Virus record (IMG/VR): IMGVR_UViG_3300037424_001944
Coordinates: 1-26,874 of that record
DNA from: a virus
Lineage: Duplodnaviria; Caudoviricetes
DNA length: 26,874 nt
Strand: one strand, 5' to 3'
A program made the translations under genes and the position numbers. Each line of letters begins with the position of its first letter. Positions within the stretch are counted from its first letter, which is position 1. Below are positions 14,254-26,293 of the stretch, one piece after another. The notes under the pieces are model-generated. The model was not told where the DNA came from. It was given only the letters and a program-made list of their open reading frames with translations, and made no database searches.

Positions 14254-14523
14254 CGCGGCCTGCCAATGGGCGGCCTGGGCGACTGAGGGAAGGTGTCGCC
14301 GGTGCTTGTCGGCCACCTGACCGAAGGTAGCCAGCCGAAGCCCCCCTGAGAACGCCCGCCCCCCACTTCTGAATGGGTACATTGCTGGGGGGTGTGCCGG
14401 GGTGGGGGGTGTGGGGGGCGGGGTGGCAGGGGGGACTGAGGGAAGCCGCACCATTGGCGTTCTGGCCGCGCATCTTCGGGGGTTCGGGGGTTGGTGGTAG
14501 GATTTAGGGAAAGGAGTCCTACT

Positions 14524-14763
14524 ATGTTGAGAATTAGATTTCAAGCAAATATTGATGATCCGCGTCCCATAAATTGGCCCGTTAAACATCCGTATTGGGT
14601 GACGGGTGAAGCTGGTGATGGTTCTTATGCGACTGTGGTTTCGTATGCCGATGACGAACAGTACATCATGGATAACTGGCCTGAAGCAACGAACTTGGAT
14701 ATTCAAGAAGTCGAAGGTTATACATTCACAGGCCGATTTCCTAAGCCTGATTGGCTCTCGTGA
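14524..14763 (+). CDS. Hypothetical phage protein (79 aa, DPRPINWPVKHPYWVTG...RFPKPDW)
   Basis: AAGGAG RBS at 14511; lone plus-strand gene between the modules, AT-richer than its flanks. Confidence 0.8.
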   Translation: MLRIRFQANIDDPRPINWPVKHPYWVTGEAGDGSYATVVSYADDEQYIMDNWPEATNLDIQEVEGYTFTGRFPKPDWLS

Positions 14764-15021
14764 CCGGCTTGTAGTTGGGGGTTCGGGGGGTACTCCCCCC
14801 GGCAGCAGAAAGGCCCGCGAGTACGCGGGCCGATGGAGCCGGCCTGTCCGCCTGAGCAAGAGTGACCGAGCCGGCTGCGCTGTCCCTGGACCGGTCACGG
14901 TGGATCTCGATCAGTCACGTTTAAATGCGAACCGCCCGGGTTCGCCGGGCGGTTCTGTCTCAATGCGGGGAGCTTGACCGTTGACCGGGTCAACTCCCCT
15001 AAAATAATGTATCAATTTGAT

Positions 15022-15079: not shown

Positions 15080-15286
15080 CTAAGGGGCGGGTTTCGGGCT
15101 GAGGGGGGCAGCCAGTCCCCCGCCGTGGGGAAGTGTAGCACTAGTTTTTGGGTTTGGCAATGGCGAGCCGCAAGAAAGGCATGTTGTCCTTACGTGGATG
15201 CCGTTTTGAGACTCGCTCTCGTAATAGGTGTGGGCGCAGTTTTTGGGAGACTGGCAGTATCTTGGGAGAGTGGAAGCTATAGGCAT
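15080..15286 (-). CDS. Small Cys-containing hypothetical protein (68 aa, MPIASTLPRYC...CAH...CLSCG)
   Basis: ATG just downstream of the attC R' box; possible Zn ribbon. Confidence 0.4.
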   Translation of the reverse strand: MPIASTLPRYCQSPKNCAHTYYESESQNGIHVRTTCLSCGSPLPNPKTSATLPHGGGLAAPLSPKPAP

Positions 15287-15292
15287 AGGTAA

Positions 15293-15420
15293 GGCCAACG
15301 GGTTAGGCTTTAGCGGCAGGGCGAGGCACGCAACACAACGCCGCCTGCCACTTTGTTTGATAATGTTTGTGGCATTTGGGACAAGACCATTGCCCTGTCC
15401 GCTGCGAGCCTGTGTTAGGT
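15293..15420 (-). other. Integron attC site (128 bp) of the inserted cassette
   Basis: Minus strand R'' ACCTAAC (15420-15414) ... R' GTTGGCC (15299-15293). Plus-strand arms aggct-t-tagcgg-cagggc / gccctg-T-ccgctg-C-g-agcct pair with two extrahelical bases. Confidence 0.8.
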
Positions 15421-15571
15421 GCGTGATAGATACGGATACGCAATGATCTACAGCCGCCACACCATGCACGGCGAAGCGGGATATGCTTGGCAATCTTGCC
15501 AACCCAACCACACTTCAAGCATTCGACTTCTTTAGTTTCGTAGTTCTCAATGTTTTTCACAAAGCACCTAA
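15299..15571 (-). mobile_element. Integron-type gene cassette (273 bp)
   Basis: Begins G|TTAGGTGC and its attC starts GCACCTAAC (9-bp complement); carries a single ORF starting 11 nt inside. Confidence 0.8.
15303..15560 (-). CDS. Zinc-finger-like cassette protein (85 aa)
   Basis: GTG start; CLKC, CGGC, CPKC and CC motifs; reads through its own attC; AT-richer 5' half. Confidence 0.65.
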   Translation of the reverse strand: MKNIENYETKEVECLKCGWVGKIAKHIPLRRAWCGGCRSLRIRIYHAPNTGSQRTGQWSCPKCHKHYQTKWQAALCCVPRPAAKA

Positions 15572-15623
15572 CTCTTAGAAATCAGCGGCGGTGTTCGTCC
15601 GTCCGCTGGATTGGCCGTTGGCC
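15566..15623 (-). other. Integron attC site (58 bp), phage-resident
   Basis: Minus strand R'' GGCCAAC (15623-15617) ... R' GTTAGGT (15572-15566). Plus-strand arms aatcagcggcgg / ccg-T-ccgctg-G-att pair perfectly apart from the canonical extrahelical T and G. Confidence 0.85.
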
Positions 15624-15889
15624 GCTCTTTGAAGTCGGTCGATCTCGGCTGCGATTAATGCGCCTGCGCGAACTAAATTACTGATCCGGTCTTTTGGCTT
15701 GAATGTGGAAATGTCCCAAGGCCAAAATCTAGGAAGTTGCAAGCGGTATCCTTGGCCTTCAATCAAATACGCAATTGCAGCATCGGCTAATTCTCCGTCT
15801 GTCCATTGGTCATCGTGATGGTAGTCGTAGCCTTCTACTGTTTCCTGTCGATCACGTTCATCGAAAATCATTCCACGTCCTGTTTGCAT
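15575..15889 (-). CDS. Phage protein with ER.RQ...HDD...GELA.AA.AY...WPW...NLVRAGALIAAEIDRL pattern
   Basis: 104 aa from the ATG with AAGGAG RBS; motif pattern familiar from phage accessory proteins; C-terminus is encoded by the attC. Confidence 0.8.
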   Translation of the reverse strand: MQTGRGMIFDERDRQETVEGYDYHHDDQWTDGELADAAIAYLIEGQGYRLQLPRFWPWDISTFKPKDRISNLVRAGALIAAEIDRLQRAANGQSSGRTNTAADF

Positions 15890-15890
15890 G

Positions 15891-16220
15891 TTAGTGCTCC
15901 TTTTCTGTGTATTCAATTTCTTCGACCATCGCGCTCGTCTTCGGATGGGCCGGGATGATCCCCTGCAAGTACATCCGGCCTTGGAAGATCCCCTTGTGCG
16001 GGTTCGGCTGGCCGATGGGATAAGGCCAGTGAGCGCAGATGGTATTCCATTCTTGGAAGGATGGATAGACGCTGGCCCGCCAGATGAGCAGGCGATAGAT
16101 ACTCCCGTCTCTGCGCAGGTTTATGATTAGTCCCCCTCCCAGCTTGGTCTTTACCTGGTTGGGTTCGGCGGCGTCGGCGGCGGCGATCAGGTCTTCGAGT
16201 GTGTGTTCAAGGGTCGGCAT
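15891..16220 (-). CDS. Hypothetical protein
   Basis: 109 aa, tightly packed in the operon. Confidence 0.65.
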   Translation of the reverse strand: MPTLEHTLEDLIAAADAAEPNQVKTKLGGGLIINLRRDGSIYRLLIWRASVYPSFQEWNTICAHWPYPIGQPNPHKGIFQGRMYLQGIIPAHPKTSAMVEEIEYTEKEH

Positions 16221-20466: not shown

Positions 20467-20636
20467 GTGGTAGGGACTCCTTTTGGGGTAGAATTGAGAT
20501 GCAGTCGCCCGCTGGTCTCCTGTGGTAGGGACTCCCCAGCGGGTGACTGCGCGTTAGGTCGCCGCGTTCCCGGCGCGGCCTTCTGTTATCAGGCTTGGGG
20601 GTCGTCCGAGCCTGGGATAACCAATGGAGAAAAAAA

Positions 20637-21461
20637 ATGAAAACGGATGTGGGTGAGTTTCTGGCTTCGTATCCTTATAGCGAAGCCACGAAAGACGCGT
20701 ATCGTCGCGTCTTTGCCCGGTTGCTTGCCGGTCGAGACCTGGGTGGTCTGACGGCTGCCGGGCTGGTGGAATTGGTACAGTCTCAGGGATGGGGGAATAG
20801 CCAGCAATGTCTTGCGCTGGCGGCTTGCCGGAAGTTCTTATGCTGGCGCTATGGTCAGAGTCATGCGGCTTTGTCGGCCAGGATCAAGTCCCAGCGCCCG
20901 AAGCACCAGCGGGTGCTTACTCCCGAAAAGGCGCTCGAGCTTTTGATGTGGTTTGATGCGTCGAAGGCGAAGGGGGCGCGGGATCTGGCGCTGGCGGCAA
21001 CGTTGTTGGATACGGGCCTGCGTGTGTCTGAGGTCTGCCGCTTACAGTTGGCCGATACGGATCTTGACCGGCGCGTGCTTCAAGTGGTTGTGAAAGGTGG
21101 ACAGTGGGGGATTGGGGTATTCTCCGACCAGACTGCTGAATATATATCGGCCTGGCTCGCCCTTCGCCGGGCGAAGCTGGGCGAAGGGGCGTTGTTTGTG
21201 AGTACACGCTCTGGCTGTCATTTGACAAGGGAAGGCTTGCAGAGTATTGTCAAACAATGGGGTCGGGCTATAGGTATCAAGCTCTCTCCCCACGATTTCC
21301 GGCGGTCCTATGCTACAATCGCAACGGTGTTCGGCGCTCCCAGCCGGTTGATCCAGCTTGGAGGGCGTTGGTCGTCGATAGGGATGGTCGAACGTTATAC
21401 ACAGTCAGTTAGCCCGGAAGCTATCCGGCCCTACTTGCCGGTCAAAAACTTGACTGCATAA
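20637..21461 (+). CDS. int: Tyrosine recombinase / phage integrase
   Basis: 274 aa from MKTDVGEF with GGAG RBS; catalytic R (TGLRVSE), K (VKGG), HxxR (HDFRR), W (GRW) and Y (ERY). Confidence 0.92.
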   Translation: MKTDVGEFLASYPYSEATKDAYRRVFARLLAGRDLGGLTAAGLVELVQSQGWGNSQQCLALAACRKFLCWRYGQSHAALSARIKSQRPKHQRVLTPEKALELLMWFDASKAKGARDLALAATLLDTGLRVSEVCRLQLADTDLDRRVLQVVVKGGQWGIGVFSDQTAEYISAWLALRRAKLGEGALFVSTRSGCHLTREGLQSIVKQWGRAIGIKLSPHDFRRSYATIATVFGAPSRLIQLGGRWSSIGMVERYTQSVSPEAIRPYLPVKNLTA

Positions 21462-25948: not shown

Positions 25949-26293
25949 GGGAGTGGCCGGGCGCACTTAATACCAGCCCCCGCACCCTGCTAAAATGGAG
26001 CCCCATACAGGGCCTGTCAGACGCGGGTAAAAACCGTCCTTATAGAGTGCAACCTACAACGGGAAATCTTGAAGGGTGGTAACAGATTGGGGGTCTGGGG
26101 TGGCTGTGCCCCCCAGCGGGGTGCAGGGGTAGAACCCCTGCGTGTATTTAGAAGTTGGAAGTTATTGGGAGTGGCCGGGCGCACTTAATACCAGCCCGGC
26201 CACCTGTCGGGGAGAAGTGCGGGGGCGCTTTAAATACCAGCCCCCGCACCTGATGAAACGGGTGAAGGCGGGCGTTCTAAATACCAGCCCGCC
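25949..26293. repeat. Hairpin array 2: four units with 13-nt loop GYNYTWAATACCA
   Basis: 25949-25989 (chimeric), 26171-26203, 26217-26249 and 26267-26293. Confidence 0.85.
26086..26141 (+). repeat. Structured repeat unit B, copy 3
   Basis: 44 bp identical to 269-312, followed by a variant hairpin gcagggg-tagaa-cccctgc. Confidence 0.85.

Follow-up and report, generated by a model that had tools for sequence, protein, structure and literature searches.

We report an attC site, attC1, that is kept at the same locus in a small tailed phage and in all three of its relatives that reach this locus, with different cargo joined to it at one and the same G|TT position, exact reciprocal boundaries around that cargo and no integron integrase (IntI) above the family cut-off in these phages. 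In the reading that we prefer, and that we consider reasonably probable from the sequence comparisons, attC1 would be a fixed, inherited attC to which varied cassettes have been joined singly at G|TT by attC x attC recombination, with an IntI provided from outside the phage. The window, meaning the whole stretch of DNA analysed (26,874 nucleotides), is the entire virus record (26.9 kb, linear, CheckV estimate 100%). Because it encodes terminase subunits, a portal, a protease-capsid protein, an excisionase and a tyrosine integrase, we take it for a small temperate tailed phage. GenBank holds no close phage (best terminase match 30% identical), and a search for the host found none, the integrase clusters giving no names or taxa.

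A long series of small genes on the minus strand ends with the locus, and a sigma-70-like site (15160-15132) and the packaging genes follow downstream. The preliminary description had placed it within an early operon; its minus-strand position holds, and the term early operon was read from gene order alone. Elsewhere in the window, a 90-aa gene (14491-14763, plus strand) flanked by a pair of GGGGTTCGGGG repeats has no counterpart in a co-occurring strain (joint 14463-14776) or in the three relatives, and is a second variable slot, one without attC boundaries. Positions 200-390 and 26086-26142 match the L002 region between the locus and the terminase genes, which suggests a repeated element near the record ends.

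Two attC sites with exchanged R boxes around a 273-bp cassette

The phage-resident site attC1 (15566..15623, minus strand, 58 bp) was recovered by a generic attC scan, by two models (R1 and R2) and through its orthologues. In order of falling coordinate, it comprises the R'' box (15623-15617), a 4-nt spacer, the L'' box (15612-15605), a 7-nt loop, the L' box (15586-15580), a 7-nt spacer and the crossover G|TT between 15572 and 15571; positions 15609 and 15602, which read G and T on the plus strand, are extrahelical and have a 6-bp stem between them. The last six positions of the site (15571-15566) are cargo sequence. The second site, attC2 (15293..15420, minus strand, 128 bp), is the cassette's own and is supported by the attC scan, by R2 and by its R-box complement; its final 6 nt (15298-15293) belong to the phage right flank and are complementary to the R'' box of attC1. 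It has the same 6-bp stem as attC1, with C and T as extrahelical bases. The G and T announced in the preliminary description are thus present in site 1, on the plus strand, and do not extend to site 2. Its other statements on the pair were borne out: two tandem minus-strand sites of 58 and 128 bp at exact coordinates, whose R boxes are exchanged, R' of site 1 being complementary to R'' of site 2 over 9 nt and R'' of site 1 to R' of site 2 over 7 nt. The predicted outcome of deleting 15299-15571 was likewise reproduced in silico, giving a 273-bp piece and one self-complementary site that folds as a single closed hairpin (-14.9 kcal/mol, bottom strand). Of the 706 GTT triplets in the window, 4 are followed within 600 nt by an exact 9-nt complement, the true one counted.

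The generic attC scan returned exactly two matches in the window, namely these two sites. When the same scan was applied to 200 dinucleotide shuffles (with a rule of five inner pairs; a six-pair rule misses attC1), the mean was 0.165 matches, two or more matches appeared in 6/200 and a tandem pair in 0/200, and the two-site finding is therefore not due to chance. On control arrays the scan recovered 2/3 published TJE1 sites, four sites of an IntI-headed array and one M16-3 site, a partial recovery that marks it as specific rather than sensitive. A covariance-model check, proposed earlier as a way to judge both sites, was run with two home-built models. R1, a model of 18 short attC sites selected without the core motif of the query, ranked site 1 first (21 bits, E 0.007) and gave only a 9-bit partial match to site 2. 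R2, a covariance model of 150 attC sites from other records, matched both sites end to end at their exact coordinates on the plus (bottom) strand (33.1 and 25.2 bits; next-best match in the window 12.2 bits); its training loci were partly found with the core motif of attC1, for which R2 is therefore not independent.

Published attC sites have RYYYAAC / GTTRRRY R boxes, extrahelical G and T, spacers usually of 5-6 nt and lengths of 57-141 bp, according to the features listed in PMC5027507. Both sites carry the AAC / GTT triplets and fall within this length range, and attC1 departs from the R-box consensus at one position per side. The L boxes of attC1 pair by 7/7 Watson-Crick pairs, and those of attC2 by 5 pairs and 2 G-T wobbles, the wobbles forming on the bottom strand only. 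The central spacers are 4/7 nt in attC1 and 5/8 nt in attC2, against the usual 5-6 nt, and the spacing of attC1 (4 and 7 nt) was seen in 0/45 other sites with the same core, which counts against its use for loading. In folding, attC1 is better than its shuffles (z -3.0) and attC2 is not (z -1.1); this shuffle-like folding of site 2, and the failure of the short-site model R1 to match it in full, are weak points for cassette loading.

The cargo of the window is a 273-bp segment (15299..15571, minus strand) with the make-up of a gene cassette: one ORF, a split attC with complementary R' and R'' boxes (9 nt) and a family domain that ends at the R'' box. It is intact, is missing from the three relatives and has a GC content of 0.51 (0.47 without its attC), against 0.58 for the whole window. 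Its ORF (15303..15560, minus strand, 85 aa, GTG start) begins 12 nt past the crossover; residues about 5-49 represent a CxxC...CxxC family of unknown function, a predicted zinc ribbon, and the remainder is read-through of attC2. The nearest homologue, P0002, shares 81% identity across the N-terminal 64%, with divergence setting in just past the residues encoded by the R'' box, and the three closest homologues share PN at that box (about residue 49) and diverge afterwards. For the window ORF, Pfam and NCBIfam gave no family, PHROG matches were weak (E 0.002-0.05) and Atlas matches stayed below 0.9. A search of plasmids with the cassette and attC1 gave no match, five short chance matches aside. 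A right arm like that of attC2 (15295-15336) was seen in different surroundings on two contigs (5113 and 3809 nt) from runs X1 and X2. We also observed that the variable middle of attC2 (15303-15420, minus strand) encodes, in frame, an extra Cys/His-rich stretch, and that the cassette ORF stops just within the right arm of attC2, like the upstream gene in attC1.

The same site with different cargo in related phages

Of 20 loci obtained in a search with the terminase, five stand at 86-93% identity, and three of these five (L002, L004 and L008) reach the locus. The preliminary description had pointed to related phages as the place to look for different cassettes at this position, and the comparison confirmed it: attC1 is kept in 3/3 relatives, with other cargo at the same G|TT, in a sample of four genomes that perhaps come from related samples. 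The identity of attC1 to the window (86-89%) equals or exceeds that of the neighbouring gene (73-84%) and of terL (79-88%), and homology around the site begins one base ahead of the R'' box and stops at G|TT. Behind it, L002 carries two cassette ORFs in tandem, L008 one, and L004 one with a 237-bp attC.

The R' box that follows attC1 is the exact complement of the cargo R'' box in 4/4 genomes (9 nt in the window, 10 nt in the others), and one of the three relatives has, beside this 10-nt complement, a 12-nt internal copy. The terminal R' complements the R'' box of attC1 at 7/7 positions in the window, with one mismatch in L002 and one wobble in L004, and is lost in L008. Among other attC sites this R-box type was found in 1/150 on each side, and a cognate R' (GTTRGCC) upstream of attC1 on the cassette strand was found in none of the four genomes, which therefore do not show the arrangement of a SALIN or attG. 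From the missing upstream R' it follows that attC1 does not terminate an ordinary cassette, and from this together with the rare R-box type at the flank that the array is closed by the phage's own sequence, as is expected if cassettes entered a self-complementary site. A linear array piece would not end in an R' complementary to its first R'' (the 1/150 type), and the published TJE1 array is open, with its first R'' matching the upstream R', whereas the array of the window is closed by the phage flank. Both points weigh against one ancestral capture of a multi-cassette array (CALIN) that was later reduced by lineage-specific excision or deletion without repeated loading. We regard such a history as quite unlikely, even though an empty site was seen in none of the 4 genomes, attC x attC usually ends in excision, and L002 and L008 have both a first cassette in common and decayed cargo attC sites.

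That shared cassette argues further against a single capture. L002 and L008 carry it as two alleles whose gene differs by 18 synonymous against 8 non-synonymous codon changes, and it is therefore a real gene; both R boxes differ between the alleles in a compensating way, and the attC bodies are wholly unrelated. Since compensating R boxes pair only in the circular form, this points to separate captures or to passage through circles. The gene family comprises 38 viral loci (L114-L151) and is mostly a plain phage gene, the cassette form being limited to L002, L008 and the unrelated record L126 (2482-2745); a plain allele 77% identical to the L002/L008 cassette gene is found in L116 (2501-2719). 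The R boxes of the cassette form match over 10-11 nt in unrelated phages. As a separate observation, the 5' part of the L004 cassette (L004:3733-3822) contains a perfect hairpin of 12 bp and, after it, a copy of its own attC that is inverted, lacks the centre and has the circular-junction form; a circle, or template switching on a folded site, may have left this copy behind as a fossil.

Cargo attC sites have decayed in 2/3 relatives, being degenerate or collapsed in L002 and without the right arm in L008, so that fixation apparently follows loading in some lines. The idea of a phage-resident attC that takes variable cassettes agrees with the comparison of relatives; the word "shuttle" attached to it earlier is too strong for these lineages. 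Changes in attC1 itself comprise an altered AAC of R'' in L002 and a T in place of the extrahelical G in L004. In the in-silico empty sites of L002 and L004 the closed hairpin is not the lowest-energy form, and the top and bottom strands of the empty site fold equally well; both results count against loading. In run X1, a 228-nt contig has the right flank of the phage connected, at a GTT, with yet another attC-like arm. This may be a fifth cargo state, known from 30 loose letters.

Beyond this group, an attC was found in 0/19 records of distant relatives, most of them fragments (positive control 3/3), and in five distant loci searched with filters off nothing exceeded 12.3 bits. The site was therefore probably acquired a single time, at the base of the clade. 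The exact attC1 pattern was found in 0 viral stretches and the degenerate pattern in 1 metagenome stretch, the same contig as L004, while a profile of the upstream gene returned the same three phages and one weak match, and genomes gave only weak unrelated matches.

Within the four genomes, attC1 varies at 2/32 paired against 10/20 unpaired positions (Fisher p 0.0005), 11/12 stem pairs being invariant; covariation or compensatory change in the stem was not found. The frame overlapping the site is supplied by different genes. In the window it is a phage gene of 104 aa (15575..15889, minus strand), similar to several PHROG families of unknown function and spanned by a joint (15624-15927) in run X1, whose final codons traverse attC1 and whose stop lies 3 nt ahead of the crossover G. 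This gene is absent from the three relatives, in which a conserved phage gene of unknown function (15891..16220, minus strand, no family match and no usable Atlas match) is fused in frame to the attC1 tail. Protein constraint is accordingly an unlikely cause of the stem conservation, the overlapping tail belonging to different genes. Through the three different junctions the upstream frame remains identical and stops 0-3 nt before the crossover in 4/4 genomes, and the cargo start lies 12 nt past the crossover in 3/4, an arrangement in which the upstream frame ends at the crossover like ORF-11 in attI1 (as described in PMC8876359). The same source reports that read-through relieves attC hairpins. 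From this layout we infer translational coupling of the cargo to the gene that reads through attC1.

These signs of maintenance bear on the view that attC1 is the passive leftover of a cassette inserted at a random GTT (attG), on which cassettes land without the phage maintaining the site. Cassettes do enter GWT sites and leave single attC sites, by the account in 10.1101/2022.09.11.507474; attC1 is confined to a clade with terminase identity of at least 86% and may thus be young, and its stem shows no compensatory change. Such an insertion would leave the cognate R' upstream and a random sequence downstream, the reverse of what was found, and it would account neither for stem positions far more conserved than loop positions nor for a site that outlived replacement of its upstream gene with the same frame each time. 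We therefore judge it very unlikely. On the other side of the array, the phage right flank (15080..15292, minus strand) contains the sigma-70-like site and, ahead of the packaging genes, a GC hairpin that is conserved. A 68-codon frame behind attC2 in this flank was considered as the gene of the original cassette that brought attC1 and was rejected: its synonymous/non-synonymous codon changes (4/12, 6/13 and 1/6) look neutral, homologues were found only in L002 and L008, and it is probably not a protein gene.

Possible source of the recombinase and routes of entry

No IntI above the TIGR02249 cut-off was found in the window (0/1) or in relatives (0/5). Lacking an intI gene, the window holds no complete integron; with two attC sites 145 bp apart, its locus is a CALIN by definition, and it behaves like an integron platform without being one. 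The phage's own tyrosine integrase (20595..21461, plus strand) is Xer-like and was rejected as an IntI, since it scores 30.5 bits, far under the cut-off of 265, over residues 28-168 only. Its homologue is absent from genome G002, in which attC1 and a cassette are nevertheless present. An IntI-free transfer of these modules, by the phage enzyme or by homologous recombination among related phages, is consequently extremely improbable to us: a tyrosine integrase is indeed encoded, and conserved flanks in strains that co-occur in run X1 would permit module swaps, but homologous exchange, which can spread cargo, cannot generate a number of G|TT junctions that are exact and have R boxes to match.

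The absence of IntI from the phage and its relatives means that the recombinase would come from the host or from a co-resident element. Among viral records with the same attC core, an IntI-like fragment heads the array in 1/50 (241.6 bits against the cut-off of 265, cut by the contig end); these are 50 of 74 core-motif loci, after setting aside three of the phage's own family, non-attC matches and near-duplicates. In the viral record L093 (1-3000), which has an IntI-like gene and an attC array, the ORFs of the array apparently run opposite to the usual cassette direction. The excised junctions suggested earlier as a trace of cassette movement were searched for in Logan contigs of runs X1 and X2, which drop rare forms, and neither the empty joint (15298-15572) nor the circle junction was found; X1 may itself be the sample from which the window derives. 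The runs listed as holders include no RNA run, and no sigma-70-like site was found on the cassette strand between 15.2 and 21 kb.

Under the proposed mechanism, the empty attC1 would fold on its bottom strand during phage replication and be cut at G|TT, and an integron integrase supplied from outside the phage would join a free cassette circle to it, one event each. The incoming cassette would then sit directly behind attC1, which would take the role of attI, and the cargo would share a transcript with the phage genes upstream, its translation being coupled to the gene whose frame passes through attC1. Cargo that is still intact, as in the window, could leave again, and cargo with a decayed attC, as in L002 and L008, would stay fixed. 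One source lists phage infection and replication among the ways in which folded attC strands become exposed (PMC8946536), and intermolecular attC x attC insertion has been described in vivo (10.1101/2020.11.24.395434). That report also states that attI is preferred over attC as an insertion site, which counts against loading at attC1.

The same preference makes room for another route, in which the circular phage genome would act as a giant cassette, being inserted through attC1 by IntI into a host attI or array and leaving later by way of a downstream attC, together with neighbouring cassettes. An empty attC1 is shaped like the attC of a circular cassette, L002 holds two cassettes in tandem, G002 is without the Xer-like integrase, and a Vibrio prophage between two attC sites has been described (PMC9892861). 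We nonetheless consider this route unlikely, given that the ordinary integrase is kept by the window, G001 and G003, that no prophage form was found in any array and that the cargo genes are small and phage-like, unlike a typical chromosomal array. Its footprint would be the same as that of direct loading, and sequence would not separate the two. Taken together, as repeated IntI-type loading at a maintained site, direct loading and the giant-cassette route appear likely to us.

Relation to known integron systems and significance

Integrons had been presented in the preliminary description as systems that are not described in phages. This was wrong, since phage attC clusters with IntI1 activity are published: Qi et al. 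2023 report 17 CALINs and 3 integrons among 10,705 phage genomes and IntI1 activity at 5/6 tested phage attC sites, and propose capture by off-target homologous or illegitimate recombination, adding that phages may draw on cassettes (PMC9892861). The present locus resembles their CALINs in having at least two attC sites with cassettes in a phage without intI; unlike it, theirs are presented in that account as single genomes, with neither relatives compared nor a conserved acceptor attC (PMC9892861). In TJE1 (L112:1-300) we noted that position 1 of the record is the start of the array, which opens directly behind the annotated palindrome with an R' to match its first R''; this start next to the palindrome may be its acceptor site. 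The Vibrio anguillarum prophage Va_90-11-286_p16, flanked by two attC, likewise couples a phage to attC, but it carries a full piece of host integron with intI, as against a lone acceptor in a small phage here (PMC9892861).

With the classical integron (intI, attI, Pc) the locus shares a fixed insertion point with the newest cassette first; it differs in having no intI, in its foldable attC acceptor as opposed to the double-stranded attI, and in that expression would rely on phage transcription. With SALIN/attG it shares an attC with cassettes outside an integron, an integrase acting in trans and fixation by attC deletion, as outlined in 10.1101/2022.09.11.507474; the cognate R' is downstream here and upstream in that description, and the site here appears to be reused. 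In titles and abstracts of open-licence papers and bioRxiv, we found no description of a vertically kept attC that serves as attI substitute with variable cargo. Among IMG/VR records (L022-L095) many attC arrays without IntI were observed, with 157 attC matches in 53 loci, and self-complementary attC sites in L026, L036, L074 and L083 could be further landing sites.

Homologous or illegitimate recombination is the usual explanation for accessory genes in phages. In the present case a phage lineage that contributes no enzyme appears to run a site-specific loading slot consisting of one 52-bp element, by which phage CALINs would become working platforms instead of one-off captures. The element offers a small construct for testing attC x attC loading, and the matched cassette and non-cassette alleles (77% identical) offer material for studying how cassettes are made. 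It is possible, if somewhat doubtful, that attC1 is a domesticated attC, that is, a selected, integrase-free substitute for attI with a read-through frame, which would draw through a borrowed IntI on a pool of cassettes made from phage genes. If this were true, phages would be both users and a source of gene cassettes, and the locus would give a handle on the question of cassette origin.
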